Shown here: positions 31,700 to 50,962 of the stretch, in pieces | Layout of the letters: every line of letters begins with the position of its first letter | Position numbering within the stretch: the stretch's first letter is position 1 | DNA from: Verrucomicrobiota bacterium | Lineage (GTDB): Bacteria > Verrucomicrobiota > Verrucomicrobiia > Limisphaerales > UBA11358 | Direction: 5' to 3' | Assembly: GCA_050010675.1 (NCBI GenBank) | Contig: JBEKKN010000001.1 | Span: forward strand, 7,465 to 71,464 | DNA length: 64,000 bases | Translations under genes and position numbers: made by a program | Notes under the pieces: generated by a model | Databases searched by the model: none | What the model was told of the DNA's origin: nothing | The model's input: the letters and a program-made list of their open reading frames with translations, nothing else

Positions 31700-31789
31700 T
31701 CAAGCGTTCACGACCCGCCGGTGAAGTGAACCGGTATGGCGGATCTCATCAGCAACGCCTTGCGGCTGAGGAAAGTGAACCTGTAATTT

Positions 31790-34640: not shown

Positions 34641-34646
34641 CAGCTT

Positions 34647-34865: not shown

Positions 34866-35170
34866 AAAATCGCCGTCGAGTCATATCCAGCCTTGGGTGA
34901 ACAGGAATTCGTCCGCGACGGCTTGCCAAGGATTTAGCAGGCAGCAACTTCGCAGCGCGAAATGAATTTGTCCTATTGCGTCAGGGTTAATGGCAGCATC
35001 AACGACGAGACCGGTGCCGACCATGCCCGCGCCGGCGCAGATCCCTTTGTAGTGGGCACGAGCTTGTCTGGTACTCGCGACCTAAAATCTCAGCGTCACC
35101 CAATTGCGCCGGAGGGTGAGCGAGGGATCCCAAGCTGATGGGATTGAATCATTAAGTCCGAATCGTTGCG

Positions 35171-35216
35171 ATGGGGTGAATACCCCATAGTGCCGGCCGA
35201 GGGTTCGATTTATAGT
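35171..35216 (+). promoter_or_regulatory. candidate promoter, site g: ATGGGGTGAATACCCCAT-N22-TATAGT
   Basis: Perfect 7+7 dyad with the same orientation and spacer, and the best -10 of the set. ATG 35225 lies 8 nt after the hexamer and opens only 9 codons. The DUF3300 gene starts at 35262. Confidence 0.6.
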
Positions 35217-35261
35217 GACGCGTGATGGGAAACATTGGCCGGTTCAATTCCTGATATCGCG

Positions 35262-36386
35262 ATGAATTTATTGATTAAAATCCCTCTTCTGCTGTGCCTG
35301 CTCGCTGGCACGACCTTGTCGGTGCGGGCACAAGCAGCGGTTCCGCCCCCAATGCCTGCTTATGAAGCGCTTACCGCCGCGCAATTGGACCAGTTGCTGG
35401 GGCCCATTGCACTTTATCCCGACCCGTTGATTGCCGAAATTCTGCCGGCGTCCACCTTGCCCACGCAAATCGTACTGGCCGACCGTTATATCACGGGTGG
35501 TGGCGATCCCAACCAGGTTGGCCAGCAGCCCTGGGACGCCAGCGTCCAGGCACTGGCCCGTTATCCCAGTGTGTTGAAATGGATGGATGACAACTTGAAT
35601 TGGACGACACAGGCGGGACAGGCTTTTCTCAATCAACAGTCGGACGTGATGAACTCCATCCAACGGCTGCGGGTCACGGCTTCCAAACTGGGCAACTTGC
35701 AATCGTCTCCGCAGCAACAGGTGATTGCTGACGGCGGTGACATTGAAATAGTTCCAGCGGATCCACAGGTGATTTATGTGCCGGTTTATCAGCCAGACCA
35801 GGTTTATTATGACGCCGCGTATGGGCCGCCTTTCATCACCTTTGGCATCGGCTGGCCGATTGGCGCGTGGCTGGATTACGATTGTAATTGGGAAGGAGGC
35901 AACCTCATTTTTTGGGGCAACGGTTATTCGCGTCCGTCCAATTGGTGGCGTGAGACATCACGTCAGCGGGACATGGGCCATACGGGCGTCTGGCGGTCGG
36001 ATAATCATCCCGGCGCCGTCGCGGCCAACCGCGGCGACCGGGGTTATGGCGGGAACGCGATTTCACGTTCGACCTCTCCGGCGGTCATACGCCAGGAACT
36101 GGCCCACCCGGTTCCGCAAAAGGTTGAACACTCAACCAGCATTTCCCGACCCGCGTCCGCTCCCGATGAACGTGCCACACCCATCCGCCGGCCAGAATCA
36201 AACGGGGCCTTCATTGGCATACAAAGTTCAAGTGATACGAGAGCTTATAGCAACCGTGGACAGCAAAGCATGCAGCCCATCACCCATTCGGCGCCGGTTT
36301 CACGGCCGCAACAATCCGGTGGTGGCGGCGGTCATGTTAGCCCTGGAGGCTCCGGTGGTGGGGGCCATGGTGGTGGCAAGCACTGA
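35262..36386 (+). CDS. DUF3300 domain protein, secreted, with Gly-rich C-terminus
   Basis: Signal peptide MNLLIKIPLLLCLLAGTTLSVRAQA. QLDQLLGPIALYPDPLIAEILPASTLPTQIV is the DUF3300 hallmark. Confidence 0.8.
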   Translation: MNLLIKIPLLLCLLAGTTLSVRAQAAVPPPMPAYEALTAAQLDQLLGPIALYPDPLIAEILPASTLPTQIVLADRYITGGGDPNQVGQQPWDASVQALARYPSVLKWMDDNLNWTTQAGQAFLNQQSDVMNSIQRLRVTASKLGNLQSSPQQQVIADGGDIEIVPADPQVIYVPVYQPDQVYYDAAYGPPFITFGIGWPIGAWLDYDCNWEGGNLIFWGNGYSRPSNWWRETSRQRDMGHTGVWRSDNHPGAVAANRGDRGYGGNAISRSTSPAVIRQELAHPVPQKVEHSTSISRPASAPDERATPIRRPESNGAFIGIQSSSDTRAYSNRGQQSMQPITHSAPVSRPQQSGGGGGHVSPGGSGGGGHGGGKH

Positions 36387-36397
36387 TTTTAATCCCC

Positions 36398-37363
36398 ATG
36401 ATTTTCAAAACAATTTCGCCGATGAAAATAAAATTAATCACATGGTGGCGCCCAGCTCCAATGCTGGCAATTGGACTAGGTCTGGCGTTGCCAATTTTTG
36501 TCTCTGCACAGGAGGAGCAGGCTTTTACTTCACCCAACGACGCCGTCAATGCATTGGTGGCGGCAGCCACCAATCATGATACGAATGCCCTGCATTCGAT
36601 TTTCGGGTTGGCCGGACAATCCTTGATTTCACCCGATGTGGTCCAAGCCACTGAAGAATATAAAATGTTCGTGCAGCAACTGGTGGAAAAGACCGGGTTG
36701 ACCGCCAATTCAGATTCAAACATCACCTTGGAAGTTGGGACGAATGGCTGGCCGTTTCCCATCCCGCTGGTGAAACAAAATGGCCGGTGGTTCTTCGATA
36801 CTGCTGCCGGCAGTGAAGAAATACTCGCCCGGCGCATCGGCCGGGACGAAATTGGCGCGATCAATGTTTGCCATGCGTATGTGGATGCCCAGCGCGAATA
36901 CGCCGGTCAGGATCGTCTGGGGGACGGCGTGCTGGCCTATGCACAGTTCCTGCGCAGCTCACCCGGCACGCATGACGGACTGTTCTGGCCGACGAATCAG
37001 CCGGGCGAAATCTTGAGTCCCTTGGGTCCGCTGATCGCGCAGGCCCGGGTGGACGGTTATCAACGCCCAGCCAAAATGCTCAATGATGAACTGGCGCCGT
37101 ATCACGGTTATTATTTCAAAATCCTGACGCGTCAGGGCAGGCACACACCGGGTGGGAAATATGATTATATCATCAACGGCCACATGATTGCCGGATTTGC
37201 CTTGGTCGCCTGGCCAGCCGAATGGGGTAATACGGGCGTGATGACCTTCATCGTCAATCAACAAGGCAACGTCTTTCAAAAAAACCTCGGATCCAAGACC
37301 GAAAAGATCGCCAGCGCCATGACCACTTATGACGCTGATGACACCTGGACTTCGACCCGGTGA
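36398..37363 (+). CDS. DUF2950 domain protein, secreted
   Basis: YAQFLRSSPGTHDGLFWP and YHGYYFKILTRQG...GFALVAWPAEWGNTGVMTFIVNQQG are typical of DUF2950, the usual partner of DUF3300. An alternative start is ATG 36422. Confidence 0.8.
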   Translation: MIFKTISPMKIKLITWWRPAPMLAIGLGLALPIFVSAQEEQAFTSPNDAVNALVAAATNHDTNALHSIFGLAGQSLISPDVVQATEEYKMFVQQLVEKTGLTANSDSNITLEVGTNGWPFPIPLVKQNGRWFFDTAAGSEEILARRIGRDEIGAINVCHAYVDAQREYAGQDRLGDGVLAYAQFLRSSPGTHDGLFWPTNQPGEILSPLGPLIAQARVDGYQRPAKMLNDELAPYHGYYFKILTRQGRHTPGGKYDYIINGHMIAGFALVAWPAEWGNTGVMTFIVNQQGNVFQKNLGSKTEKIASAMTTYDADDTWTSTR

Positions 37364-38070
37364 AACTTGAAACAAACGAGAATGAGGCAATTGTTGCAAC
37401 CGGTCTGACCAAATGGTTTGGCGAGGGTGAAGCCAGGGTCACGGCCGTAAATAATGTCGGGTTGGTCGCTCATTTCGGGGAAATGCTGTTTATCGTCGGC
37501 CCTTCCGGCAGCGGCAAGACCACCATGCTGAGCATGATTTCCGGCATCCTGCGTCCCAACGCCGGCGACGTCAAAGTCAAGGGTGCCGATATCTGGACGC
37601 TGAATAATGACCAGTTGGCCGACTTTCGTCTGAACACCGTTGGCTTTGTTTTTCAAGACTACCATTTGTTTCCAAGATTGACCACGGCCGAGAATGTCGC
37701 AATCCCGCTGATTCTGAAGCAACGCAACTGGGACGAATCCATCACCGAGGCCAGGCAATACCTCGAAATCGTCGGCCTGAAAGACCGGGGCGAAATACTG
37801 CCCGTCAAGCTCTCGGGCGGCGAGCAGCAGCGCGTCGCGATTGCCCGGGCGATCATCAGCCAGCCGGAGATTCTGATTCTCGACGAACCGACGGCCTCCC
37901 TGGATGGCGACACGGGCCGGATGATCATCGCCTTCGTCAAAGAGAAGATTCTTAATGAAAAGCGCTGCATTCTGATCGTCACCCACGATGCGCGCATCAA
38001 CGAATATGCGGATCGGATCCTCCACATGGAAGATGGACATCTCACCGCCGAAGACAAGGGAACCGAATGA
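37360..38070 (+). CDS. ABC transporter ATP-binding protein (MacB/LolD/DevA-like)
   Basis: Walker A GPSGSGKTT, signature LSGGEQQRVAIARA, Walker B LILDEPTASLD. The GTG start overlaps the previous stop. Confidence 0.9.
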   Translation: MKLETNENEAIVATGLTKWFGEGEARVTAVNNVGLVAHFGEMLFIVGPSGSGKTTMLSMISGILRPNAGDVKVKGADIWTLNNDQLADFRLNTVGFVFQDYHLFPRLTTAENVAIPLILKQRNWDESITEARQYLEIVGLKDRGEILPVKLSGGEQQRVAIARAIISQPEILILDEPTASLDGDTGRMIIAFVKEKILNEKRCILIVTHDARINEYADRILHMEDGHLTAEDKGTE

Positions 38071-39200
38071 ATACCGACGACCCCAAACCAGAGGCAAAAG
38101 CGACCGCGCCCAAGCCGGAAACAGCCGCGCCGAAGCCCGATCCCAAAGCCATCGAGCTTACCCACGATAAAAAAGCGGCTGAATCCCCGCCTGAAATCAA
38201 AGCTCAAACCAAACCTGAAGTTAAGCCCGAGGCCAAAGTTGGGACCAAACCGAACACTGAAGTCAAAGCCGGCGAGACCAGGACTGAAACCAAATCCGCC
38301 GCGCCCAGGATGGCAGTCGGAAACAAGATCATTTTTACCATCGCCATCATCGGTATTCTGGCCGGACTGGTTGCCGCTTACATTTTTGGCCTGGAGCGGA
38401 AAGCCCAGCCACCGGTATTCAAACCGGTCAGCAATCCATTTGAGTCGGCCATCTATGCCAATGGCATGATTGAGAGCGACCTGCCGAGCGGAGAAAATAT
38501 CAATATTTTTCCGGAGGTTTTCGGCCCAATCACCCGGGTGTTCGTGCGCGAGGGTCAGCCGGTATCGGCCGGCACACCGCTGTTCACCATTGAGGATTCC
38601 GTGCCGAGAGCAAATATGGAACTGGCCGAAGCCAACCTGAAAGCAGCCCGCGACCAATACGACAAGCGCCGCGCCGCCTACGACGTTGACCCGAAATCGG
38701 TCAGCAAGGATGTGCTGGATACGGCGGAAGACACCTTCATCCAAGCGACCGCCGCACTGAAGGCAGCCAACGCGCTGCTGCAATATTATTCGGTCAGAGC
38801 ACCGGTAGCTGGAGTCGTGCTGGCCGTCAATGCAACGGTCGGGGGCTATGTGTCGTCACAGGGTGATTATGACACCTACACGGAATTGTTCGATCCGCTC
38901 GTCGTCATGAGCGGGCCGCAGGATTATATGGACGTGCGTTGTTATGTGGACGAGATACTGGTCTCACGATTGCCGTCTCACTGGCACATCCAGGCGCAGA
39001 TGCAAATTACCGGGACGGATGTCAAGGTGCCGCTGGAGTTTGTCCGGGTGCAACCTTATATCTCGCCCAAAATCGAACTGTCGAACGAGAAACAAGAACA
39101 AGTGGACCTGCGGGTGCTGCCGGTGATTTTCCGATTCGAAAAAAAGGACTTCCCGGTCTATCCCGGCCAGATGGTGGATGTCTTTATCGGACAAAAATAG
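38067..39200 (+). CDS. HlyD/DevB-type membrane fusion protein with K/P/E-rich N-terminal segment
   Basis: About 80 aa of low complexity (KPEAKATAPKPETAAPKPDPK...), then one TM segment, then biotinyl-lipoyl, coiled-coil and beta-barrel adaptor regions. Confidence 0.8.
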   Translation: MNTDDPKPEAKATAPKPETAAPKPDPKAIELTHDKKAAESPPEIKAQTKPEVKPEAKVGTKPNTEVKAGETRTETKSAAPRMAVGNKIIFTIAIIGILAGLVAAYIFGLERKAQPPVFKPVSNPFESAIYANGMIESDLPSGENINIFPEVFGPITRVFVREGQPVSAGTPLFTIEDSVPRANMELAEANLKAARDQYDKRRAAYDVDPKSVSKDVLDTAEDTFIQATAALKAANALLQYYSVRAPVAGVVLAVNATVGGYVSSQGDYDTYTELFDPLVVMSGPQDYMDVRCYVDEILVSRLPSHWHIQAQMQITGTDVKVPLEFVRVQPYISPKIELSNEKQEQVDLRVLPVIFRFEKKDFPVYPGQMVDVFIGQK

Positions 39201-39231
39201 CGGCAGCAAATACCATGAACCATCTCCGAAT

Positions 39232-40374
39232 ATGAAATACAGCGGCATCCTGCGGATCGGCTTCAAGCTGCTGGTCAACGATCGGGGCAAGTTCTTTGCC
39301 CTGTTGATCGGGATCACCTTTGCCGTGTTCCTGATGATGGAAATGACCGCCATGTTCGCCGGCATCCTCAACCGGGCCTTTTCGCCGGTCACCAATATCG
39401 GTGCCGCGATGTGGATCATGGATCCGGCGGTCAATACGGCCACCAGTCCCATCCCCCTGCCGGGATATGTGCTCGACGCGGCGCGCAGCATGGACGGCGT
39501 CAGTTACGCCGTGCCGCTCTTCATGGGCGGTGCGCTGGTCAAGCTGGCCAGCGGCACCTATCAGGGGGTCAATGTAGTCGGTCTGGACGACAGCAGTCTG
39601 TTTGGCCGGCCCGAACTGGAACAGGGCAATATTCAGGACATCTATGCCGACAACACCTTCTTCGTGGTGGATGACGCTGAATTCTCCAAGCTGGGGAACC
39701 CGAAGATCGGCACGACCTTCGAACTCAATGATCACCGTGGCCGGATCGTAGGCATCGCCCGGGTCGCCGCCAACGGACTGAATGGCGTTCCCACGCTGTA
39801 CACCACTTACAACCGTGCGATTGAATACCTGCCGTCGACGCGCTTCACCATGTCCTATGTTCTGGTGCAGCCGAAAAATGACGCGGCGGTGCCCGGCATC
39901 AAGCAACAAGTCGCCAGGCTTGGCTATGTCGCCTTCACCAAGGATGAATTCAACAACCGGATCACCCACTATTACACCTACCAGACCGGGATTGGCACCA
40001 ACATCCTGTTGATGACCATCATCGCGTTTATTGTCGGACTGTCCATCTCCGGCCAGACTTTCTATACCTTCATCCTCGAAAACCTCGAAAAATTTGGCGC
40101 GCTGAAAGCCATCGGGGCCAAGGGGCGCGAGCTGGTTTACATGATCCTCTTCATGGCGTTCTTCACGGCCATGATCGGCTATGGGCTGGGCATCGGTCTG
40201 GTGACGTTGATGATTTCGATCGCCCGCTACCGGCTGCCCAACTACGCGGCGATGATCACCTTTGGAAACCTGGGACTCGCCTTCGGCATGGTCCTGCTCA
40301 TTGCCGGCATCTCAAGCTATATTGGCATACGCAAGGTTCTCAAGATCGAGCCATTCGACATCTTTCGGGGGTAG
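39232..40374 (+). CDS. FtsX-like ABC permease (DevC type)
   Basis: An N-terminal TM segment, a large periplasmic domain and a C-terminal FtsX-type 3-TM bundle. Start set to ATG 39232 (MKYSGILRIGFKLLVND). Confidence 0.8.
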   Translation: MKYSGILRIGFKLLVNDRGKFFALLIGITFAVFLMMEMTAMFAGILNRAFSPVTNIGAAMWIMDPAVNTATSPIPLPGYVLDAARSMDGVSYAVPLFMGGALVKLASGTYQGVNVVGLDDSSLFGRPELEQGNIQDIYADNTFFVVDDAEFSKLGNPKIGTTFELNDHRGRIVGIARVAANGLNGVPTLYTTYNRAIEYLPSTRFTMSYVLVQPKNDAAVPGIKQQVARLGYVAFTKDEFNNRITHYYTYQTGIGTNILLMTIIAFIVGLSISGQTFYTFILENLEKFGALKAIGAKGRELVYMILFMAFFTAMIGYGLGIGLVTLMISIARYRLPNYAAMITFGNLGLAFGMVLLIAGISSYIGIRKVLKIEPFDIFRG

Positions 40375-40376
40375 CC

Positions 40377-41870
40377 ATGAACCATTCCATGAGAACTTTA
40401 ATGTTTCAGCTCCAAAGCGTAACCGGACCTACCATCGTATCACTGGCATGCGTGGTTCTGTTTGCCGGCTGCAGCTTCGCGCCAAAATATTCGGAACCAT
40501 CGGTTCAAACGCCGGCCGCTTTCAAGGAATTGACGCCGGCGCAATCATCGGAAACGGATGGCTGGAAAGCCGCCAGGCGAGACGACGACCGGCTTCGCGG
40601 CCAGTGGTGGAAAATGTTTAACGAGCCGGAGTTGAACGCCTTTGAAAGTCAGGTGAACGTTTCCAACCAGACGGTCGCCGTTGCACTGGCCAATTTTCTC
40701 GCCGCCCGGGCGGTGGTGAAACAAGCCCGATCGCAGTATTTCCCATCCGTGACCGCCAACCCCTCCGTCACGGAATCACGGCAACAGGTAACTTCATCAA
40801 GTTCTTCGCCGGCCTCTTCCACGTTCACCGAATACTCGCTGCCCTTTGATGCCTCCTGGGAGCCGGATTTTTGGGGACGCATCCGCAACACCGTGAAGGC
40901 TAATTCGCTGGAAGCCCAAGCCACGCTGGCTGATTTGGAAAACGTGCGCCTGACCATTCAGGCGGAATTGGCGGTGGACTATTTTCAGCTGCGCGTGCTG
41001 GACGCGCAGAAACAGCTGTTGGCTGCGACGGTGACCGCTTTTCAGGAATCACTCAAGCTGACCCAGGATCAGTCTGACACGGGCCTGGCATCCGATCAGG
41101 ACGTCGCGCTGGCCGAAACGCAACTTAACACCGCGCTCGCGCAGGCCACCGACCTCGGCATCCAGCGCGCGCAACTCGAACACGCCATCGCGACGCTGCT
41201 CGGCCAGCCGGCTTCAACCTTTGCCATCGCACCCCGTTCGCTGACCACACAACCCATCGCCATTCCCTTCGGCGTTCCGTCGCAATTGCTCGAACGCCGT
41301 CCGGACATCGCCGCCGCCGAACGCCGCGTCGCGGAGGCCAACGCGCAAATTGGCGTGGCGCGCGCGGCTTATTTTCCGACCATCACGTTGAGCGGTGCGG
41401 TGGGCTACCAAAGCACCTCCATACAAAATCTGTTTTCCGCGCCGGGTCTGGTCTGGTCCGTCGGCGCGACGCTGGCGCAAACCCTGTTTGATGGCGGCTT
41501 GCGCAAAGCCGTCACCGAGCAGTCCCGGGCAATCTACCAGGGGACGGTCGCGAATTACCGTCAGACCGTGCTCACCGCCTTTCAGGAAGTCGAAGACAAT
41601 TTATCAGCACTGCGAATCCTGTCGCAGGAACGGGAACAACAGGATGCCGCTGTCGCCTCGTCGCAACGCTACTTGAGGCTCGCCGACGTCCGCTACCAAT
41701 CCGGCATTGATATTTATCTCAATGTGATCATCGCGCAAACCGCGCTGTTGAACAATCAACGAATGGCGCTGAACCTCCAGATGGAACAACTGACGGCAAG
41801 CGTCCAGTTGATCAAGGCATTGGGCGGCGGCTGGGAGGTTTCGTCGGGAGCGACCGCGTCCATTCCTTGA
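40377..41870 (+). CDS. outer membrane efflux lipoprotein (NodT/TolC family)
   Basis: Lipobox LFAGCSF and two OEP repeats (LNVSNQTVAVALANFLAARA..., QLLERRPDIAAAERRVAEANAQIGVARAAYFP). Confidence 0.9.
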   Translation: MNHSMRTLMFQLQSVTGPTIVSLACVVLFAGCSFAPKYSEPSVQTPAAFKELTPAQSSETDGWKAARRDDDRLRGQWWKMFNEPELNAFESQVNVSNQTVAVALANFLAARAVVKQARSQYFPSVTANPSVTESRQQVTSSSSSPASSTFTEYSLPFDASWEPDFWGRIRNTVKANSLEAQATLADLENVRLTIQAELAVDYFQLRVLDAQKQLLAATVTAFQESLKLTQDQSDTGLASDQDVALAETQLNTALAQATDLGIQRAQLEHAIATLLGQPASTFAIAPRSLTTQPIAIPFGVPSQLLERRPDIAAAERRVAEANAQIGVARAAYFPTITLSGAVGYQSTSIQNLFSAPGLVWSVGATLAQTLFDGGLRKAVTEQSRAIYQGTVANYRQTVLTAFQEVEDNLSALRILSQEREQQDAAVASSQRYLRLADVRYQSGIDIYLNVIIAQTALLNNQRMALNLQMEQLTASVQLIKALGGGWEVSSGATASIP

Positions 41871-41883
41871 TCCAAAACCAATT

Positions 41884-42978
41884 ATGAATACGAACCTGAT
41901 CCCTATCGCAAAGAAACTGGTCGCCGACAACAAAGGTTTGCTGGCGATGGATGAAAGCAATCCCACCTGCAACCGACGATTCGCGAAGCTCAACATTCCG
42001 CAGACGCTGGAAGCCCGGCGTGCCTATCGTGAACTCATCTTAACCACGCCCGGTCTCGGCGAAAGCATCAGCGGCGTGATTCTCTACGACGAGACCATTC
42101 GCCAGTCGAAAAAAGATGGCACCACCTTTCTTAAAGTCCTTGGTGACGCGGGCATCATCCCCGGCATCAAGGTGGATACCGGGGCCAAGGACCTGGCCGC
42201 GCATCCCGGGGAAAAAATCACCGAAGGTCTGGATGGCCTGCGCGATCGGCTTAAGGAATACTTTCAAATGGGCGCGCGGTTTGCCAAGTGGCGCGCGGTG
42301 ATTGCCATCGGCAATGGCATTCCCAGTCAAAGTTGCATCGAGGCCAACGCGCACGCGTTGGCGCGTTACGCCGCGTTGTGCCAGGAAGCCGGACTGGTCC
42401 CCGTCGTCGAGCCGGAAGTGCTCATGGACGGAGACCATACCCTGGAGCGGTGCGGCGAGGTGACGGAGCAGGTCTTGCGAACCGTTTTCAACCAGCTGAA
42501 TTCCCAGCGCGTGGGGCTGGAGGGCATGATCCTCAAACCCAACATGGTGCTGCCGGGATTCACCTGCCCCCCGCACCAGGAAGTCAAAGAAGTGGGCGTC
42601 GGCGAACAGCAATATCAAGTGAGGCTGACCGACCGTCAGCCGGACGAGGGCCAAGATATCGACGAGGTCGCCAACATCACGGTGAAGAGTCTGTGGCGAA
42701 CCGTTCCCGCGGCGGTTCCGGGGATTGCCTTTTTGTCCGGCGGACAATCCGCCGAACTGGCCTCGGCCCGTTTGAATACCATGAATCTTCGATTCAAGTC
42801 GCAACTGCCATGGGCACTGTCATTTTCCTTTGCCCGTGCCATCCAGCAGCCGGCTTTGGAAATCTGGCAGGGCAAAGAGGCCAACGTGCTTGCGGCTCAG
42901 CAAGCTTTGCTTCATCGTGCCCGATGCAACCGTGCCGCGCGCCGGGGTGAATACACTGTTGCGATGGAAAGGACATGA
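41884..42978 (+). CDS. fba: class I fructose-bisphosphate aldolase
   Basis: NKGLLAMDESNPTCNRRF, IPGIKVDTG, the Schiff-base region ILKPNMV, and FLSGGQS. Confidence 0.9.
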   Translation: MNTNLIPIAKKLVADNKGLLAMDESNPTCNRRFAKLNIPQTLEARRAYRELILTTPGLGESISGVILYDETIRQSKKDGTTFLKVLGDAGIIPGIKVDTGAKDLAAHPGEKITEGLDGLRDRLKEYFQMGARFAKWRAVIAIGNGIPSQSCIEANAHALARYAALCQEAGLVPVVEPEVLMDGDHTLERCGEVTEQVLRTVFNQLNSQRVGLEGMILKPNMVLPGFTCPPHQEVKEVGVGEQQYQVRLTDRQPDEGQDIDEVANITVKSLWRTVPAAVPGIAFLSGGQSAELASARLNTMNLRFKSQLPWALSFSFARAIQQPALEIWQGKEANVLAAQQALLHRARCNRAARRGEYTVAMERT

Positions 42979-43997
42979 GCATGACAACAAAGAGACAGCT
43001 CGTGGATGAATCGCCTTTGTATCCACTGCGATTCGAACCGATCTATCAATATCGGCTCTGGGGTGGCCGACGTTTGGCCAATTTCCTCTCCGCTCCGCTG
43101 CCCGGTGATGGTCCCATCGGCGAAGCCTGGCTGTTGAGCGACCGCGAGGACCATCCGAGCCGTGTCGCCGATGGACCACTTAAGGGACGAAGCATCGGAC
43201 AATTGCTTCATCAGTGGCCCGAACAGATGCTGGGAAAACTGGCCGGGCAGTTCCGTCGGTTCCCGCTGCTGCTGAAATTTCTCGACGTGCGAGAAACGCT
43301 CTCGGTCCAGGTGCATCCATCGGATCAGCAGACCCAATATATCCCCGCGGGCGAGACCGGGAAGACCGAAGCCTGGGTGGTGCTGGAGGCGGGGACAAAA
43401 AGCCGCATCTACGCGGGCCTCAAGCCTGCCACCACAACCGACACCCTACGGCAGACGCTCGCGAACGGAACGGTGGCTGACCACCTCGCAGGCTTCACTC
43501 CGAAGCCCGGCGACGGAATTTTCATACCGGCTGGAACCGTTCATTCGTTGGGCGACGTGGTGGTTTTTGAAGTGCAGGAAAACAGCGACGTGACATTCCG
43601 GCTTTTCGACTGGAACCACGTTGACGCCAGGACCGGCCAGCCCCGGCCTCTGCAAGTTGATCAGGCGATGGCCTGCATTAATTTTGCGCAAGGTGCAATT
43701 GGTCCGGTGGTGCCCATGTTGGATGAAGTAAAGCCGGTGTCGCGCGAGCGGCTCTTTGATTGTGAACAGTTCGGTTTGTGGCGGTTCGGCGCAGAATCGC
43801 CATTTGGAGTTGGTGCCGAAAGAACCCCGCGGGTGCTGGTGTGTCTCACCGGTGACGGTCAGGTGGAACACGATGGCGCCAATTACGCCATCGGAAAGGG
43901 GGATGTGCTGCTCTTGCCGGCCATGGTTGGAGCATGTTTGTGCCGGCCGCGCGGTGCCATCAGCTTGTTGGAGATTTCATTGCCGGAAGGAAAATAA
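42975..43997 (+). CDS. manA: type I phosphomannose isomerase
   Basis: WGGRRL, LLKFLDVRETLSVQVHPSD and ETGKTEAWVVLEA. The start overlaps the fba stop. Confidence 0.85.
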   Translation: MSMTTKRQLVDESPLYPLRFEPIYQYRLWGGRRLANFLSAPLPGDGPIGEAWLLSDREDHPSRVADGPLKGRSIGQLLHQWPEQMLGKLAGQFRRFPLLLKFLDVRETLSVQVHPSDQQTQYIPAGETGKTEAWVVLEAGTKSRIYAGLKPATTTDTLRQTLANGTVADHLAGFTPKPGDGIFIPAGTVHSLGDVVVFEVQENSDVTFRLFDWNHVDARTGQPRPLQVDQAMACINFAQGAIGPVVPMLDEVKPVSRERLFDCEQFGLWRFGAESPFGVGAERTPRVLVCLTGDGQVEHDGANYAIGKGDVLLLPAMVGACLCRPRGAISLLEISLPEGK

Positions 43998-44001
43998 CCA
44001 C

Positions 44002-44784
44002 ATGAAAAGACTCATCGTTTTCGATCTGGATGGCACGCTGGCCGAAAGCAAAGCTTCGCTCGATGCCGAGATGGCCAGACTGCTCACCGCTCTGCTGGGA
44101 ATTGTGAAGGTGGCGGTGATTTCCGGCGGCGATTGGCCACAATTTGAGAAACAAGTGCTCTCCAATCTGCCCCACGATGAACACCTGAAGAACCTGTCCC
44201 TGCTCCCCACCTGTGGAACAAAGTTCTACCAATACGCCGGAGATTGGAAAAAAATCTATTCAGAAGATTTCACTACGGATCAAAAAGGGAAAATCATCAA
44301 CTCTCTAAAAAAAGCGCTCGAAGCAGCGGGCTTCAAGGTCGAAAAGGTCTGGGGAGAAACCATTGAGGATCGGGGAAGCCAGATTACGTTTTCGGCTTTG
44401 GGTCAGCAGGCGCCCATCGCAGAAAAGAAAAAATGGGACCCCGATTTCAGCAAGCGCAGGAAGATCAAGGCACTCCTTGATAAACTGATCCCTGAGTTTT
44501 CCGTGCGCCTGGGAGGCACGACCTCCGTTGACGTCACCAAGCCGGGCATTGATAAAGCCTACGGGATTCGGAAACTCCGTGACATCCTTGGCATTGCCAT
44601 TGATGAGATGATTTTTATCGGCGATGCGTTGTTTCCCGGCGGAAACGACTATCCGGCCAAAGAAGCAGGAGTTGTGTCCATCCGGGTCCGGGATCCCAAT
44701 GAATCGAAACGAGTGATTGAAGCCATTGTCGCTTGTCTGGGTGGCGTTCAACCCACAAAACCTCGTGCGGAGAAGACCGGATGA
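44002..44784 (+). CDS. HAD-IIB hydrolase, phosphomannomutase-like
   Basis: IVFDLDGTLAESKASLD, VAVISGGDW and FIGDALFPGGNDYPA resemble the eukaryotic-type PMM / HAD-IIB fold. Start set to ATG 44002. Confidence 0.7.
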   Translation: MKRLIVFDLDGTLAESKASLDAEMARLLTALLGIVKVAVISGGDWPQFEKQVLSNLPHDEHLKNLSLLPTCGTKFYQYAGDWKKIYSEDFTTDQKGKIINSLKKALEAAGFKVEKVWGETIEDRGSQITFSALGQQAPIAEKKKWDPDFSKRRKIKALLDKLIPEFSVRLGGTTSVDVTKPGIDKAYGIRKLRDILGIAIDEMIFIGDALFPGGNDYPAKEAGVVSIRVRDPNESKRVIEAIVACLGGVQPTKPRAEKTG

Positions 44785-45905
44785 GCGGCTTTCAATTACA
44801 GCGCCTGGGAATGTTGATGGAGCCGGAGCCGGGCAACCCGCAGGAGATTGAAGGCGTCCTGAATTCCGCGGCTGCTCGCGGTCAGGACGGCAGGCTTTAC
44901 CTGTTTCCGAGACTAGTTGCCAAGGGCAACTATTCGCGCATCGGCATCGCCCGCGTAAAATTCAACGAAGCCGGCGACCCGTCCGGAGTCGAGCGACTCG
45001 GCATCGCGCTTGAGCCGGAAGCGGATTACGAGCGGCGTTCTGACGGCCGTGGCGGATGCGAGGATGCCCGGGTTACCTTTGTCGAGCCGCTTCAGCATTA
45101 CGTCATGACTTATACGGCGCTTTCGCCGGGAGGACCCCGGATCGCCCTGGCCATGTCGGAGGATTTGTTCCACTGGGAGCGGATCGGGCTGGCAATCTTT
45201 GAACCCTTTCAAGGCATTGATTTCGTCCACGTGGACAACAAGGATGCCAGCATCTTCCCCGTCGCCATTCCCAATCACGCCGGAAAAATGCAGCTGGCCA
45301 TGCTCCATCGTCCGCTTTTTCCCGGCACCCGCCCCGAGGAAACCGCCTGCCTGGACGAGTCCCGGATGGTGGATCGCGAGCATGAAAGCATCTGGATTTC
45401 CTACTGTCCAATGCCGCCTGAGGGCCTGGCGCCGCATCGGCCCGGCTTGTTCAACTCGCATCATCGGCTGGCCAGTCCGGTCTCAGCCTGGGAAAAGCTG
45501 AAAATCGGCGGCGGCACTCCACCCATTCTAACCAAGCATGGCTGGCTGATTCTTTACCACGGCGTGAGCAAAATGGCGGAACCAGACAGCAACGGACACC
45601 CGCTCCGCTACTCGGCCGGGGTGATGGTTCTGTCAAAAGAGCATCCGCAGGAAATCCGCTATCGTTCCACGGACCCGGTGTTGACGCCGGAGTTGCCACA
45701 GGAACGCCACGGGACCATCGCCAACGTCGTGTTCCCCACCGGCATCGACCGGCGCGACGATCTCGGCACGCCCGACCGCTTTGACATTTATTACGGGATG
45801 GCCGACAACCGGATTGGTGTGGCGCGTCTCGACCTGCCGGAACATCTGCCACCAGGAGCAGCCGCCGACGGGCCGTCGCCAAAATCAAGAGAGACTATGT
45901 GGTGA
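44781..45905 (+). CDS. GH130 family glycosidase/beta-mannoside phosphorylase-like protein
   Basis: LNSAAARGQDGRLYLFPR, CEDARVTF, NKDASIFP, YYGMADNRIGVARL and a five-bladed beta-propeller pattern. The ATG overlaps the previous stop. Confidence 0.75.
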   Translation: MSGFQLQRLGMLMEPEPGNPQEIEGVLNSAAARGQDGRLYLFPRLVAKGNYSRIGIARVKFNEAGDPSGVERLGIALEPEADYERRSDGRGGCEDARVTFVEPLQHYVMTYTALSPGGPRIALAMSEDLFHWERIGLAIFEPFQGIDFVHVDNKDASIFPVAIPNHAGKMQLAMLHRPLFPGTRPEETACLDESRMVDREHESIWISYCPMPPEGLAPHRPGLFNSHHRLASPVSAWEKLKIGGGTPPILTKHGWLILYHGVSKMAEPDSNGHPLRYSAGVMVLSKEHPQEIRYRSTDPVLTPELPQERHGTIANVVFPTGIDRRDDLGTPDRFDIYYGMADNRIGVARLDLPEHLPPGAAADGPSPKSRETMW

Positions 45906-45993: not shown

Positions 45994-46038
45994 GTCGGGT
46001 TACACCCCATAGGACATGGCCAGCCTTGGGCGTAGGCT
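45994..46038 (+). promoter_or_regulatory. candidate promoter, site h: GTCGGGTTACACCCCAT-N22-TAGGCT
   Basis: Same element, orientation and spacer. The in-frame ATG 46047 lies 8 nt after the hexamer. Confidence 0.55.
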
Positions 46039-46046
46039 TGATCCGA

Positions 46047-49000
46047 ATGAATGCGCCACCTGCCGCCGCCCAGCCAAAGCCTCCCGAACCAAAACCGGGG
46101 GCATCCGCGGATTTGAAGCCCGATCCAAAGGACGATTTGAAAACGCTGCCGATGGCGGAGGTGGAGAAAAAATTAGAATCGTCGCCGGATGGTCTTACCG
46201 ATGCTGAAGCCAAGAAACGGCTCACGCAATATGGGCCGAATGAACTGGTCGAGAAGAAGACAAATCTTCTCCTGAAATTCCTCTTGTATTTTTGGGGGCC
46301 AATTCCGTGGATGATCGAGATCGCGGTGATTCTGTCGGGCGTGGTCCGGCACTGGCCGGATTTTTTCATCATCCTCCTGTTGCTGGTGACCAACGCGGTG
46401 GTTGCCTTCTGGGAGGAACGCCAGGCCGGCAATGAAATCGCCGCCTTGAAAGCCAAACTGGCCATCAAGGCCCGCGTTATCCGCGACGGCAAATGGATCA
46501 ATCCGGCGGCACGCGAACTGGTGCCGGGCGATGTCGTCCGGCTGCGGCTGGGCGACGTGGTGCCGGCCGACGCGCGTTTGCTGGCAGGCGACGAGGTGTC
46601 GGTGGATCAATCCGCGCTGACCGGCGAATCGTTGCCGGTGACACGCAAGTCCGGGGACGCCGTGTTTTCCGGTTCGATCATCCGGCGCGGCGAAATCGGC
46701 GCGCTGGTTTATGCGACGGGCGGGAATACCTATTTTGGCAAAACGGCACAATTGGTGCAGGAGGCATTAACCGTCAGTCATTTTCAAAAAGCGGTTTTGA
46801 AGATTGGTAATTATCTCATCATCCTCGCGGTGGCGCTGGTGGCGGTCATCATTGGTTTCGCCATCTATCGCGGCGACGCGATTCTCACCACGTTGCAGTT
46901 CGCCCTGGTGCTGACCGTGGCGGCGATTCCGGTCGCCATGCCCACGGTTTTGTCGGTGACGATGGCAGTCGGCGCACGGCTGCTCGCCAAGAAACAGGCA
47001 ATTGTCAGCCGGTTGGTGGCGATTGAGGAACTGGCGGGCGTGGACGTGTTGTGTGCCGACAAGACCGGCACGTTGACTCAAAACAAACTGACGCTGGGCG
47101 ACCCGTTCAGCGTCAACAATATCCCCGCCGGGCAAATCATCCTGACGGCGGCGCTGGCGTCGCGCGAGGAAAACAACGATACGATTGATCTGGCGGTTTT
47201 GGGCGGCCTGAAAAATAAAGACGCACTGAAAGAATATCAGGTCGTCCATTTCCTGCCATTTGATCCGGTGCATAAACGCACCGAGGCGACGGTCAAGGGC
47301 AAGGACGGAAAGACGTTCAAGGTGACAAAGGGCGCACCGCAAGTGGTTCTAGCTTTGTCGGCCAATGCTGGTGAAGTCAAAGCGGCAGCTGAAAAAGCGG
47401 TTAATGATTTCGCCGCCCGCGGTTTTCGTTCGTTAGGCGTGGCGCGGACCGAGGGCGACGGACCATGGCAATTTCTCGGCGTGTTGCCCATGTTCGATCC
47501 GCCGCGCGAGGATGCCAAGGCCACGATTGCGACTGCCCTGACCATGGGCGTGAAGATCAAAATGGTGACGGGCGATCAACTGGCGATTGCCAGGGAGACG
47601 GCGAAGACCTTGGACATGGGCACGAATATTCTTGATGCCAAAATGCTGGGCGACTCAAAAAAACACGAGTCAGCGGAGGTGATTGAGTCCATCGAGCAAG
47701 CGGACGGTTTTGCCGAGGTGTTTCCCGAACATAAATTTCACATCGTGGATGTCCTGCAAAAGCGCAACCACATCGTCGGCATGACGGGCGACGGCGTGAA
47801 TGACGCGCCGGCACTGAAGAAAGCGGACTGTGGTATCGCCGTTTCCAGCGCGACGGACGCGGCACGCGCGGCGGCCGCGATCGTGCTGCTCACGCCCGGC
47901 CTGTCGGTGATCATTGATGCCATCAAGGAAAGCCGGCGGATTTTCCAGCGAATGAACAGTTACGCGATTTATCGCATCGCCGAGACGCTGCGCGTGTTGT
48001 TGTTCATGACCCTGGCGATTCTGGTTTTTAATTTTTATCCCCTGACGGCGGTGATGATTGTGATGCTGGCGTTGCTTAACGATGGCGCGATTCTGTCCAT
48101 CGCCTATGACAATGTTCACTACAAAAACAAGCCTGAGTCGTGGAATATGCGCATGGTGCTGGGCGTCTCCACGGCGCTGGGAATCATCGGGGTCGTGTCC
48201 GCCTTTGGACTATTTTATCTCGGCGAGCGGGTCTTTCATCTCGACCGCGCACATATTCAGACGCTGATGTATTTGAAACTGTCCGTGGCGGGACATCTGA
48301 CCATTTTCCTCACCCGCACCCGTGGACCGTTCTGGTCCATCCGTCCGGCGAGGATTTTGATGATCGCGGTGTTTGGCACCCAGACCGTGGCGACCTTGAT
48401 CGCGGTTTACGGGCTTTTTATGACGCCGTTGGGCTGGGGTTGGGCGGGGTTTGTGTGGGGTTATGCCTTGCTGTGGTTCCTTGTGAACGATCGCATCAAA
48501 CTGCTCGCGTATCGGATTTTTGATCCGGTCAAAAAAACCGGGACGATTCCTGAAATCAAAGTTGCAACTCGGCCCGATGCCAAAAGTGACGCGAAAACTT
48601 CGGCCCAACCCGAAGATAAAACCGAACCGCAATCCGGCGCTAAAGAAGCGCAAAAGCCCGAGGTTAAGACGGACGCCAAGGCTGGGGCCGACCCAGATGC
48701 CAAAGTTGAACCCAAGTCGGAGGCGAAGGCCGAGCCGCAGCCTGATACCAAGCCCGACGCCAAAGCTGAGGTTGAAGCCAACCCCGTAGTCGAGCCGAAT
48801 CCGGAACCCAAAGCCAGGACAACTGCCGATTTGACGGCGCAGATCGCCACACGGGCGTATGAACTTTACGAGCAGCAGGACCATCGGGACGGTCAATCAG
48901 CACAGAACTGGGACAAGGCCGAACAGGAAATTCGCGCAACTCAAGCCAAAGCTGAAGCCAAACCAGCGGTCAAAGGTGATTTACAGCCGGGCACTAAAGC

Positions 49001-49448
49001 TCAATCGAATCCTGATGGTAATCCAAAACCTGCGGCCAAGGTTGAGCTGAAGCCGGCAGCAAAGTTTGAGCCAAAACCAGAAACCAAACCCGACGTTAAA
49101 TCTGAGACTCCCACCGAACCTAAACCTGCTGCCAAGACCGAGCCGGCGGCTGATGTCAAAGGTCCAGCCAAATCGGAAGCCACAGCCGTGCCGCCGCCAG
49201 CCGGCAACGCAGAGCCGAAACCGGACCCCAAAACCGACACCAAACCTACTGACAAAGTTGAGCCGAAGCCTGATGGCAAAGCGGAGACCAAACCTGACAC
49301 GAATGGGAAACCTGCGGCTGAGGTGTCACCGCAGCTTGTCATAAAAGTACATAAATTTTACGAGCAATTGGGGCGCGAGGATGTTCGTGCCGTTGAGGAA
49401 GCGGATCAGGCGAAGCAAAAGATTGCCGAAGCGGATACCACAAAATAA
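46047..49448 (+). CDS. plasma-membrane-type H+ P-type ATPase (type IIIA) fused to a long K/P/E-rich C-terminal tail with DUF2934-like units
   Basis: The core carries CADKTGTLTQNKLT, MVTGDQLAIA and GMTGDGVNDAPALKKADCGIAV. After about residue 830 comes a roughly 300-aa low-complexity tail that includes ATRAYELYEQQDHRDGQSAQNWDKAEQEI. Confidence 0.9.
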   Translation: MNAPPAAAQPKPPEPKPGASADLKPDPKDDLKTLPMAEVEKKLESSPDGLTDAEAKKRLTQYGPNELVEKKTNLLLKFLLYFWGPIPWMIEIAVILSGVVRHWPDFFIILLLLVTNAVVAFWEERQAGNEIAALKAKLAIKARVIRDGKWINPAARELVPGDVVRLRLGDVVPADARLLAGDEVSVDQSALTGESLPVTRKSGDAVFSGSIIRRGEIGALVYATGGNTYFGKTAQLVQEALTVSHFQKAVLKIGNYLIILAVALVAVIIGFAIYRGDAILTTLQFALVLTVAAIPVAMPTVLSVTMAVGARLLAKKQAIVSRLVAIEELAGVDVLCADKTGTLTQNKLTLGDPFSVNNIPAGQIILTAALASREENNDTIDLAVLGGLKNKDALKEYQVVHFLPFDPVHKRTEATVKGKDGKTFKVTKGAPQVVLALSANAGEVKAAAEKAVNDFAARGFRSLGVARTEGDGPWQFLGVLPMFDPPREDAKATIATALTMGVKIKMVTGDQLAIARETAKTLDMGTNILDAKMLGDSKKHESAEVIESIEQADGFAEVFPEHKFHIVDVLQKRNHIVGMTGDGVNDAPALKKADCGIAVSSATDAARAAAAIVLLTPGLSVIIDAIKESRRIFQRMNSYAIYRIAETLRVLLFMTLAILVFNFYPLTAVMIVMLALLNDGAILSIAYDNVHYKNKPESWNMRMVLGVSTALGIIGVVSAFGLFYLGERVFHLDRAHIQTLMYLKLSVAGHLTIFLTRTRGPFWSIRPARILMIAVFGTQTVATLIAVYGLFMTPLGWGWAGFVWGYALLWFLVNDRIKLLAYRIFDPVKKTGTIPEIKVATRPDAKSDAKTSAQPEDKTEPQSGAKEAQKPEVKTDAKAGADPDAKVEPKSEAKAEPQPDTKPDAKAEVEANPVVEPNPEPKARTTADLTAQIATRAYELYEQQDHRDGQSAQNWDKAEQEIRATQAKAEAKPAVKGDLQPGTKAQSNPDGNPKPAAKVELKPAAKFEPKPETKPDVKSETPTEPKPAAKTEPAADVKGPAKSEATAVPPPAGNAEPKPDPKTDTKPTDKVEPKPDGKAETKPDTNGKPAAEVSPQLVIKVHKFYEQLGREDVRAVEEADQAKQKIAEADTTK
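48530..49330 (+). repeat. degenerate coding tandem repeats (KP[DE]xKxE-type) within the ATPase tail
   Basis: Reiterated AAACC(T/C)GA and GCCAAAG(C/T)TGA-type DNA units encode PDAK, PEVK and KPAAK peptide repeats. Confidence 0.7.
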
Positions 49449-49463
49449 ACCGGGGCAAACCAT

Positions 49464-49780
49464 GTGGCTGACACGGCTGAACAAATAAAGATGAAAATCA
49501 AATCAAAGGATTTCCGGGTGCGTCCCGGAGCTATGGTGAAACTCAAACAGTGGCCGACGCGCGTGAAACCTGTTTGCAAGTCGAAGAAACACTATAAAAA
49601 GCTCCTGGAAGAACACGTTGAAGCATTGAGCGCGTTGCAACAACTGCACTACGCCTCCCACCGCTATGCGTTGCTGCTGATTTTTCAGGGGATGGACGCA
49701 GCCGGCAAGGACGGTGCCATCCGGCACGTCATGTCCGGGGTCAATCCGCAAGGCTGCGAGGTTTTCAGTTTCAAACATCA
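49464..49780 (+). pseudogene. ppk2: polyphosphate kinase 2 (PPK2) N-terminal remnant
   Basis: [36 protein letters not shown] matches the PPK2 P-loop region. Similarity ends at about 49778 and the remaining roughly 160 residues of a PPK2 are absent. Confidence 0.65.
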
Positions 49781-49840
49781 GAAGTCTTCCCGCATTGTCG
49801 TGCGGCATCCCGGAACGAAAGCGGTGTCGCCGCCACCGCA

Positions 49841-49910
49841 GTCCAAAACCTCGCGGAATGTTCCAATCCAGCTTCTGAGCCAGGCCACAGCTTTATTTAA
49901 AACGCTCTAA
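49841..49910 (-). repeat. ~70-nt repeat, copy A (inverted relative to copy B at 58315..58385)
   Basis: The reverse complement TTAGAGCGTTTTAAATAAAGCTGTGGCCTGGCT...CATTCCGCGAGGTTTTGG aligns at roughly 80% identity with copy B. It sits immediately 3' of the queG stop. Confidence 0.75.
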
Positions 49911-50962
49911 CCGGTATTTGGTGTTTGGCTTTTTGGCGGTCGCGATTTGATCCGGGCGATGGCCCAATGGGCGTGTTCGGCAATCAAGGGTTCGGGATCG
50001 TGGGCGGCTTTTTGCAGGTGGGGCAGGGCGGAGGGGTCGCCGACATTGCCGACTGCGACACAGACGTTCCGCAGCAGGCCGCGGCGTTTGGTTCGCAAAA
50101 CGGGCGTGCCGGCGAACCGGGATTTGAAACCGGCCTCGTCCAGTTGAAGTAATTCGAGCAAATCGAGTTCGGCCAACACCCGTCGCGCATGGGTTTTCAT
50201 CAAGCCGCCTTCATGGGCAAAGCGGTTCCAGGGGCACACGGCCAGGCAATCGTCGCAGCCAAAAATGCGGTTGCCGATGGCCGGGCGCAATTCGACCGGA
50301 ATGGAGCCTTTCAATTCGATGGTGAGGTAGGAAATGCAACGGCGCGCGTCAAGCTGGAAGGGCGCGGTGATGGCATGGGTGGGACAGGCCGAGAGACAGC
50401 GGGTGCATTTGCCGCAGTGATTTTGTTCCGGTGTGTCGGGCTCCAATTCCAGGGTGGTGATGATTTCGGCGAGCAGCAGCCAGTTGCCGAATTTCCGGCT
50501 GATGAGGTTGGTGTGTTTACCGACAAAACCGAGCCCGGCGCGTTGGGCCAGGTCGCGTTCCAGCAGCGGTCCGGTGTCCACGTACCACAGTGACCGTGTT
50601 TCCGCGCCGCCGAGCTGGTCCACAAAGGCGGTCAATTGTTTCAGACGCGCGCCGAGCACATCGTGGTAGTCGTTAAAGCGGGCATAGCGGGCGATGAGGC
50701 CGGAGTTCGGAATTCGGAATTCGGAGTTCGGAGTTGGAATGTCGTAACTCGTTGCCAGGCAAATGATGCTTTTTGCCGCCGGGAGCACGTGTTGTGGTTC
50801 AATGCGTTTCGGCGCGGTGCGCTCGAGCCACGCCATTTCGCCATGGCGTTTTTCCGCCAGCCATTCCTGAAACCGGTTTGCGCTCGCGGGCGCTTGGGCA
50901 TGGGTGAAACGGCAGTCGTCAAAGCCCAGCTCACGCGCCCGTTTTCGGATGGCGGTCTTCAT
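49907..50962 (-). CDS. queG: epoxyqueuosine reductase
   Basis: 4Fe-4S motifs [16 protein letters not shown] and [11 protein letters not shown], a cobalamin-domain N-terminus and a HEAT-like C-terminus. Confidence 0.9.
50702..50736. repeat. heptanucleotide tandem repeat, 5 units GGA(G/A)TT(C/G), inside queG
   Basis: GGAGTTC GGAATTC GGAATTC GGAGTTC GGAGTTG. It encodes [11 protein letters not shown] on the minus strand. Confidence 0.85.

Follow-up and report, generated by a model that had tools for sequence, protein, structure and literature searches.

A P3A-type proton-efflux ATPase of a Verrucomicrobiota bacterium with a long, predicted disordered C-terminal tail carrying two DUF2934-type units

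The present analysis concerns a gene located in a 64,000-nucleotide (nt) stretch of DNA from a peat-soil Verrucomicrobiota bacterium (GCA_050010675.1, JBEKKN010000001.1 positions 7,465-71,464), which is hereafter called the window and to which all coordinates refer, and whose product combines the core of a P-type proton pump with a long C-terminal tail containing two units of the DUF2934 type. The gene is a single unbroken open reading frame (ORF) on the + strand (46026..49448), encoding 1140 amino acids (aa) when read from TTG 46026 and closed by a stop codon at 49446-49448. The first ATG is located at 46047, yields a protein of 1133 aa and is also the start of the corresponding database protein (P0001, 1133 aa, with an identical tail); TTG 46026 and ATG 46047 are both considered as candidate starts. 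The core (46047..48527, + strand), with a short P/A/K/D-rich extension in front at its N-terminus, is matched in Pfam by Cation_ATPase_N (aa 40-104), E1-E2_ATPase (aa 146-323) and HAD Hydrolase (aa 340-601), and in NCBIfam by the equivalog TIGR01647, “plasma-membrane proton-efflux P-type ATPase”, whose cut-off of 615.5 bits is exceeded by a score of 1060 and whose full length (positions 1-755 of 755) is covered by aa 56-795. All other classes of P-type ATPase remain under their own cut-offs, the runner-up being the IIIB Mg class with 337 bits, and the translation contains DKTGT with the phosphorylated Asp (...LCADKTGTLT...) as well as TGDGVNDAPALKKA (...GMTGDGVNDAPALKKADCGIAV...). Because of this TIGR01647 score, the lower scores of the other classes and the presence of both catalytic motifs, the core is assigned to the P3A proton-efflux ATPases, in agreement with the identity proposed in an earlier note made from the DNA sequence. 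An LNDG motif (...MLALLNDGAILSIAYD...) like that in transmembrane segment (TM) 6 of the plant pump AHA2, which may contain the equivalent of the proton acceptor D684, and an Arg in the TM5 region (...YRIAETLRVLLF...), a candidate equivalent of AHA2 R655, were both read directly from the translation. The pump would probably expel protons, thereby holding the cytoplasmic pH under acid or energy stress.

The tail comprises 306 aa encoded in the frame of the pump (nt 48528-49445) and begins directly past ...KLLAYRIFDPVKK / ...WGWAGFVWGYALLWFLVNDRIKLLAYRIFDPVKK. It is composed of 16% A, 15% K, 13% P, 11% E, 8% T and 8% D, with 52 basic and 57 acidic residues and a net charge of -5; the combined share of K/P/E/A/D/T (~69%) is kept across phyla and the sequence is not, the net charge of 74 tails having a median of -6 and a range of -18 to +25. 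The low-complexity sequence of the N-terminal extension is of the same kind. Four segments can be distinguished on the + strand, the first of which, linker 1 (aa 835-932, 48528..48821), is a predicted disordered K/A/P/E/D/T polyampholyte with a net charge of -2 that holds a run of seven A residues (A7) at 48533-48539. It is followed by unit 1 (48822..48956; TADLTAQIATRAYELYEQQDHRDGQSAQNWDKAEQEIRATQ), a canonical DUF2934 domain with a predicted helix-break-helix structure, which is matched by PF11154 at nt 48834-48938 (aa 937-971, model positions 3-37 of 37) with 35.2 bits for the whole protein and 38.2 bits for the tail alone, the gathering score being 22. Linker 2 (aa 978-1101, 48957..49328) is a predicted disordered P/K/A/E-rich polyampholyte with a net charge of about +3, and leads to unit 2 (49329..49439; PQLVIKVHKFYEQLGREDVRAVEEADQAKQKIAEADT), a divergent paralogue of unit 1 that is predicted to form one long amphipathic helix. 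DUF2934 was the sole family found in the Pfam scan of the tail. Matches to Trypan_PARP in such tails were set aside as low-complexity noise (15-28 bits against a cut-off of 100), and a simple tandem-repeat origin of the linkers was rejected since Tandem Repeats Finder returned just two weak arrays (12 and 24 nt, 2.2-2.5 copies).

The island containing unit 2 (...EVSPQLVIKVHKFYEQLGREDVRAVEEADQAKQKIAEADTTK) spans aa ~1099-1138 (nt ~49320-49439) and obtains no Pfam match to DUF2934 at E<=1 in the window protein. Its relationship to unit 1 becomes apparent from profiles, in that a comparison by hhalign of the two units, each represented by 23 sequences from several phyla, gave a probability of 99.6% (E 7.5e-24) over all 45 columns. 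Orthologous copies of unit 2 in other phyla (...DLTPQLVKRVHELYEELGREDVRAVQDWEKAEREIRK, for example TPSDLTPQLVKRVHELYEELGREDVRAVQDWEKAEREIRKDE) keep a DW..AE motif, and unit 1 of those proteins (TPSDLTPQIAKRAYELYEERGRKDG.AVQDWEKAEREIRKDE) has the same length and pattern as their unit 2. Pfam reports two DUF2934 stretches in the tails of three homologous loci (L037, L060 and L070), the second being the orthologous unit 2, and reports two stretches in L053, where three units are recognisable by motif; the unit 2 of L054, which stands alone, obtains a weak match of 13.4 bits. Considering the profile match to unit 1 and the Pfam matches on orthologous units, unit 2 is interpreted as a diverged DUF2934 paralogue which has lost its Trp in the lineage of the window (DWEKAE to EADQAK). 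Both islands had been noticed in the earlier note, as a DUF2934-like unit at about 48820..48935 and a degenerate second unit; the former is borne out by the hidden Markov model search described above, and the latter by the profile comparison and by Pfam matches on its orthologues, as opposed to the window protein itself.

The two islands and the sequences that surround them differ in how they are conserved. Identity per column within the islands amounts to 70-72% over at least eight phyla, with residues D935, L936, I940, A941, R943, W962, A965 and E968 of unit 1 being invariant across phyla and V1108, H1109, Y1112, L1115 and G1116 of unit 2 being likewise invariant. Unit 2 starts 33 residues before the C-terminus in almost all homologues with located landmarks. 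Linker 1, measured from TM10 to unit 1, has 51-209 aa in those close homologues where a pattern search located the landmarks and aligns poorly, while linker 2 has 113-169 aa in close homologues with located landmarks and is far shorter in other phyla; across the family the linkers range from ~5 to ~210 aa and can barely be aligned. Since the islands are conserved over at least eight phyla while the linkers vary freely, the islands appear to be under selection.

A survey of P-type ATPase architectures, which the earlier note had recommended, indicates that the fusion is widespread. With the tail alone as query, 1018 of the scored candidates reached E<=1e-3; a precomputed PF11154 annotation is attached to the top 120 of these, nearly all of which also have P-type ATPase domains. 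A scan of one genome per species recovered 363 stretches with the pump-tail fusion. The best 80 of these 363 stretches (L001-L080) belong, according to the labels of the metagenome-assembled genomes (MAGs), to Verrucomicrobiota (among them Limisphaerales, and the closest to the window), Acidobacteriota, Bacteroidota, Ignavibacteriota, Thermodesulfobacteriota, Pseudomonadota, Planctomycetota, Chloroflexota and Nitrospirota, nearly all originating from peat bogs, fens, palsa and soils. Some MAG labels are clearly unreliable, such as “Bifidobacteriaceae”; many of the loci are located on contigs of 1-7 Mb, and the distribution across phyla is therefore not explained by binning error. The pump cores of the best 80 loci show 77-95% identity to that of the window, and a tree of 57 cores has branches of at most 0.2 substitutions per site with interleaved phyla, the window pump being placed inside a Verrucomicrobiota clade. 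Because cores from at least eight phyla are this similar and are interleaved in the tree, the pump family is inferred to have spread horizontally among bacteria of acid peat and soil and to have diversified locally thereafter. The arrangement of the tail varies: nine loci possess unit 2 only (L054, L058, L064, L065, L067, L071 and L076-L078), L053 has unit 1 twice in addition to unit 2, and in L057 unit 1 adjoins TM10, with a long linker separating it from unit 2. A paralogous second P3A pump (L040:11729-14389) contains one DUF2934 unit ~5 residues past TM10 and nothing else.

The location of the A7 run exactly at the junction of core and tail raised the alternative that a pump gene had been joined to an unrelated low-complexity ORF by an assembly or frameshift artefact, for which the earlier note had advised a check of read-level support. 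The assembly graph indeed branches at that position, with loose ends at 48533/48534, and the tails of five MAG loci (L032, L062, L066, L075 and L079) are interrupted by frameshifts. Such branching is expected where a highly conserved core meets a fast-evolving tail, and the branches represent tails of other strains which translate to a linker of the same kind. Contigs from four independent public peat metagenome runs, belonging to different studies, span the A7 run without gap or indel, and the residues that follow (KKTGTIPEIKVATRPDAK) align in frame to those of homologues (KKAGAKPEIKVASQPDAK) according to the pattern FDPVKK[AT]G[AT].PEIKVA. As the frame and the residues past the junction are kept in more than 120 proteins and in the 363 genome stretches, the artefact is refuted for practical purposes and the pump and its tail are regarded as a genuine fusion in one ORF. 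Metatranscriptome contigs from the study that provided the best DNA runs match the tail region exactly at 48619-48842, 48980-49110 and 49335-49600; in view of their low depth and possible carry-over of DNA, they speak only weakly for transcription of the tail in situ. In the five loci with frameshift-split tails the units resume in another frame, a pattern attributable either to assembly errors in low-complexity DNA or to real decay.

The structure of the C-terminal region of the window protein (aa 920-1140) was predicted by AlphaFold2 (AF2) using an alignment of 54 sequences, giving a mean predicted local distance difference test score (pLDDT) of 62 and a predicted template modelling score (pTM) of 0.18. 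In this model, unit 1 consists of two helices, one spanning aa 933-954 and the other aa 956-977, with pLDDT values of at most 89 and a break between them at a conserved Gly-containing loop, linker 2 adopts no secondary structure (pLDDT about 50), and unit 2 forms a continuous helix at aa 1102-1138 (pLDDT 82-86). The same elements were obtained for L069, a natural homologue with a short linker in which both units are covered by 101 aa, with a pTM of 0.26. The most fitting description of the tail is that of a disordered polyampholyte tether bearing two helical modules which probably depend on a partner.

DUF2934 is by no means restricted to this pump. A profile search of 1.84 billion representative proteins recovered 10,124 proteins at E<=1e-3, and the top matches include many pump-tail fragments, short free proteins sharing the TPSDLTPQIAKRAYELYE signature, a DUF697 membrane protein that carries its unit at the C-terminus and a member of a different cation-ATPase family with the same two-unit tail at its C-terminus. 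One protein of 1144 aa (P0133) contains six tandem units in the region of aa ~740-960 and no other Pfam domain. In the surveyed loci, a Cu(I) P1B-ATPase (L036:960-3122) begins with an N-terminal DUF2934 unit followed by a His-rich stretch, at a position where its homologues have the metal-binding domain HMBD, and a DUF2934 unit ends the bifunctional glycogen enzyme GlgX/MalQ (L019:3-2051) that is encoded in the conserved neighbourhood of the pump; few neighbouring genes across the 80 loci bear the domain. From these architectures DUF2934 is judged to be a promiscuous small module which recurs on P-type ATPases at either terminus.

Two free DUF2934 proteins, of 90 and 83 aa, are specified by adjacent + strand genes of the window. 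The second gene (18573-18824), starting 15 nt past the stop of the first, scores 38.5 bits against PF11154, and the first (18286-18558) scores 21.2 bits, which is just under the gathering score of 22; both of these stand-alone genes, already named in the earlier note, are counted here as DUF2934 genes, with the reservation that the score implies for the first. The further proposal of that note, namely that the free genes and the pump gene lie behind the same promoter element, is supported, as regards a shared upstream motif, by a 19-mer, GTCGGGTTAYACCCCATAG, which occurs in four copies in the window when up to three mismatches are allowed, as compared to 0.03 expected, all four being on the + strand and upstream of + strand genes. 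The copy at 45994..46012 (GTCGGGTTACACCCCATAG) is located 35 nt before the pump ATG at 46047 and is a candidate promoter or operator of a regulon, and that at 18235-18253 (0 mismatches) is located 33 nt before the first ATG of the two DUF2934 genes. The remaining copies precede, as read by eye, genes for a CsbD-like protein, a dodecin-like protein and a small basic protein (15461-15479) and a gene for a PRC-barrel protein (30589-30607). An ORF of 63 aa (46016-46207), in a frame other than that of the pump, has its ATG 4 nt past the motif at 45994..46012. The motif holds a short GGGT..ACCC inverted repeat and is also present in nine related Verrucomicrobiota loci (L001, L011, L014, L020, L022, L024, L029, L050 and L071), where the genes behind it, identified by eye, encode PRC-barrel, dodecin, OsmC/Ohr-like, DUF892/YciE-like and SPFH proteins, phosphoketolase, class-I aldolase, another P-type ATPase and small membrane proteins. 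Judging from these genes, the motif appears to mark a regulon of the general-stress type in these Verrucomicrobiota. Its presence upstream of both the pump gene and the free DUF2934 operon is consistent with their belonging to one regulon and with a role of the tail in regulation or interaction. A reading of the motif as the -35/-10 elements of a sigma-B-like or extracytoplasmic function (ECF)-like promoter was discarded, as inspection of the four sites by eye revealed no consistent second element.

The pump gene is followed on the + strand by the remnant (49464..49910) of a gene for a PPK2 (ADP-polyphosphate phosphotransferase), of which the first ~100 codons are PPK2-like and which covers only positions 1-97 of the 285 of model NF042973. 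The remnant ends where a convergent gene (49907-50962; queG by eye, for epoxyqueuosine reductase) begins. In 51 of 81 loci, representing at least eight phyla, a full PPK2 gene sits immediately downstream of the pump gene and in the same orientation, its stop being typically about 906 nt past that of the pump, and the two genes are therefore considered a tight unit; the pairing suggests that ATP derived from polyphosphate may fuel proton extrusion. The neighbourhood of the window pump (28894-45905) contains pgi and a PRC-barrel gene (by eye) together with genes for phosphoketolase, aldolase, PMI, an HAD/PMM-like protein and GH130. The genes counted across the loci were those for class-I aldolase (46 loci), phosphoketolase (39), HAD/PMM-like and SpoIIAA-like proteins (24 each), GH130 (23), a ClC channel (11) and acetate kinase (10), and the flanks of relatives add acetate kinase, the ClC channel and SpoIIAA-like proteins, as well as glucoamylase and, by eye, G6PDH, 6PGDH and RpiB. 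This neighbourhood of genes for sugar-phosphate metabolism and fermentative ATP formation travels with the pump across phyla.

The best explanation of the fusion overall, to which an even chance of being right is given, is that the DUF2934 helices are tethered protein-binding elements which control or organise the pump by docking. The helix of unit 2, with or without unit 1, would dock on the cytoplasmic domains of the pump or on a neighbouring protomer, and this docking would set the activity state of the pump in a manner like that of the unrelated regulatory (R) domains of plant and fungal pumps, the flexible linkers providing reach only. The co-regulated free DUF2934 proteins might compete or cooperate at the same surface, and the ATP for the pump would be supplied through the neighbouring glycogen and phosphoketolase genes and, in relatives, also through PPK2. 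Docking on the pump itself, as an analogue of an R domain, appears to be the single most likely mode because P-type ATPases bear the module repeatedly, be it at the N- or the C-terminus, because it can adjoin TM10 and because, as unit 2, it is fixed at the extreme C-terminus; the L040 paralogue, with its DUF2934 unit so close to TM10, argues that the module can work at the cytoplasmic face of a pump. Unit 2 is kept, at its fixed distance from the C-terminus, even in tails from which unit 1 is absent, and helical islands (pLDDT 82-89) lacking a compact fold (pTM 0.18-0.26) are, as far as the models go, what would be expected of docking elements. Several observations weigh against such docking. 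Tethers this long and disordered would lower the effective concentration of a ligand acting within the molecule, in contrast to eukaryotic R domains, which are compact and adjoin TM10; and since DUF2934 is promiscuous, being present on GlgX/MalQ, DUF697 proteins, other ATPases, a six-unit array and ~10,000 representative proteins, its partner may be generic rather than the pump. A four-helix bundle formed by units 1 and 2 was unsupported by the AF2 model of L069 (pTM 0.26), a sequence search for solved structures related to DUF2934 yielded none (best E 0.64, which is at chance level), and a Foldseek search of the PDB with the low-confidence two-unit model returned 0 matches. The earlier note had seen a hint that DUF2934 is a regulatory or interaction module for this pump; the conserved fusion and the shared motif fit such a role, but in view of the Cu-ATPase, GlgX/MalQ and DUF697 fusions the module is not dedicated to the pump and that reading was too narrow.

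The main rival to docking, possible though doubtful, is that DUF2934 acts as a module for homotypic or heterotypic association, so that the tail would fish for other DUF2934 proteins, such as the two free ones, glycogen enzymes bearing the domain and other pumps, or might cluster the pumps, thereby localising ATP-generating or stress proteins as opposed to gating the pump. Such recruitment would account for the presence of DUF2934 on many unrelated proteins, for its repetition in tandem (sixfold in P0133, two- or threefold in pump tails) and for the existence of small stand-alone DUF2934 proteins, those of the window having genes that bear the upstream motif of the pump, as well as for the GlgX/MalQ fusion partner in the conserved neighbourhood, and long tethers fit capture in trans better than autoinhibition in cis. 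It would, however, sit less well with the failure of AF2 to pair unit 1 with unit 2, with the scarcity of DUF2934-bearing genes around the pump in the 80 loci and with the single-unit variants adjoining TM10, which have no reach. The composition of the tail invites two further readings. In one of these, the tail and the N-terminal extension would jointly form a pH- or charge-responsive polyampholyte, behaving like an entropic brush, buffering protons locally or serving as an antenna for them, or responding to pH like a spring, with the islands of minor importance; both termini do carry low-complexity sequence of one kind, composition is retained across phyla where sequence is not, and the hosts inhabit acid peat. 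Linker length is nevertheless not conserved, some members being almost linkerless, the net charge of the tail ranges widely and the constraint falls on the islands, and this reading is decidedly unlikely. In the other, the Lys-rich tail would bind a polyanion, either polyphosphate or nucleic acid, and couple the pump to the PPK2 encoded downstream, as the frequent pump-PPK2 adjacency and the 15% lysine might suggest; yet the net charge of the tail is negative, its K residues being interspersed with E/D, the Pfam scan revealed no known polyphosphate-binding domain, and in the window PPK2 is truncated and the tail intact, making it a very improbable explanation. The unconstrained linker length and the net acidity of the tail are thus the reasons why the polyampholyte and polyphosphate readings are placed below docking and recruitment.

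A comparison with better known systems helps to place the docking proposal. According to a 2023 review (PMC10654040), the prokaryotic members of the P3A class occur chiefly in methanogenic archaea, have a transport function described as undetermined, and are contrasted with the extended regulatory termini of their fungal and plant counterparts; in plants and fungi, P3A pumps are subject to autoinhibition by terminal extensions, which are non-homologous and evolved independently of each other (PMC10654040). The present data revise that contrast, as they reveal a bacterial P3A clade with long extensions at both the N- and the C-terminus in hundreds of soil and peat species of at least eight phyla. 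The pumps of methanogens, including MJ1226 of M. jannaschii, share with this clade a catalytic core of the same TIGR01647 family, whereas both extensions with conserved modules and the wide occurrence in soil bacteria belong to the bacterial clade. The R domain of the plant pump AHA2 is likewise a cytoplasmic C-terminal extension of a P3A pump with conserved helical segments, accompanied by an N-terminal extension, and for both it and the bacterial tail the expectation is that the activity of the pump is tied to physiological state. In contrast, it comprises ~100 aa, adjoins TM10 and ends in a phospho-Thr/14-3-3 site; it has no sequence homology to the bacterial tail, whose DUF2934 units are borne on disordered linkers of 98 and 124 aa, whose end (...AEADTTK) is not of the YTV type and for which autoinhibition is only conjectural. 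Bacteria are not known to possess 14-3-3 proteins. In fungal Pma1, a short C-terminal helix regulates the P3A pump by docking on cytoplasmic domains within the oligomer, and unit 2 is also a terminal amphipathic helix according to prediction; the Pma1 tail is about 40 aa long, unrelated in sequence and controlled by phosphorylation. The analogy with plant and fungal autoinhibitory tails drawn in the earlier note thus holds for the position of the tail, though not for homology, and is weakened by the ~100 and ~270 disordered residues that separate units 1 and 2, respectively, from TM10. With these reservations, the architecture gives the impression of a bacterial equivalent to the tails that regulate the pumps of plants and fungi.

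Small N-terminal domains tethered by flexible linkers are known to control P1B pumps. The metal-binding domains concerned dock on the A and N domains, and DUF2934 takes their position in the Cu-ATPase of L036; they bind metal via CxxC or His motifs, however, and DUF2934 is without such a motif. With respect to stand-alone DUF2934 proteins, unit 1 is a full-length match over the gathering score; the difference is that the unit is duplicated inside a pump of 1140 aa, its second copy having Tyr replaced by His, a changed loop, the Trp lost in this lineage and a single predicted helix. Like the EP/KP region of TonB and the PEVK region of titin, the linkers are low-complexity sequences of variable length that are rich in Pro, Lys and Glu and are predicted not to fold into globular domains; this likeness is one of composition, without homology, between a cytoplasmic tail and periplasmic or sarcomeric proteins.

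By analogy with the plant and fungal pumps, the tail offers a candidate third, experimentally tractable case of tail-based proton-pump control. The pump-PPK2 pair together with the glycogen and phosphoketolase genes suggests an acid-soil trait in which stored polymers are spent on proton extrusion. A broader and rather unlikely extension of this idea is that DUF2934 serves as a general cytoplasmic docking helix which, through contacts with other DUF2934 units or with ATPases, physically wires a horizontally mobile stress-survival island, comprising the glycogen enzymes, phosphoketolase, acetate kinase and PPK2, the proton pump and the free DUF2934 proteins. If this were true, the pump tail would be an assembly line or switch allowing dormant or acid-stressed peat bacteria to spend stored polymers on pH homeostasis; it would also mean that P3A pumps had acquired terminal regulation independently for a third time, and it would provide a first function for DUF2934 with its ~10,000 representative members. 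Among the papers checked, a literature search for DUF2934 found mentions in gene or protein lists only, and no paper describing the pump-DUF2934 architecture was found, the architecture being implicit in database annotations through precomputed PF11154 matches. For this very common domain of unknown function, its occurrence on P-type ATPases in a putative stress-type regulon provides a testable context. In draft genomes, tails of this kind will frequently be taken for small proteins in their own right and be annotated wrongly as “DUF2934 proteins”.

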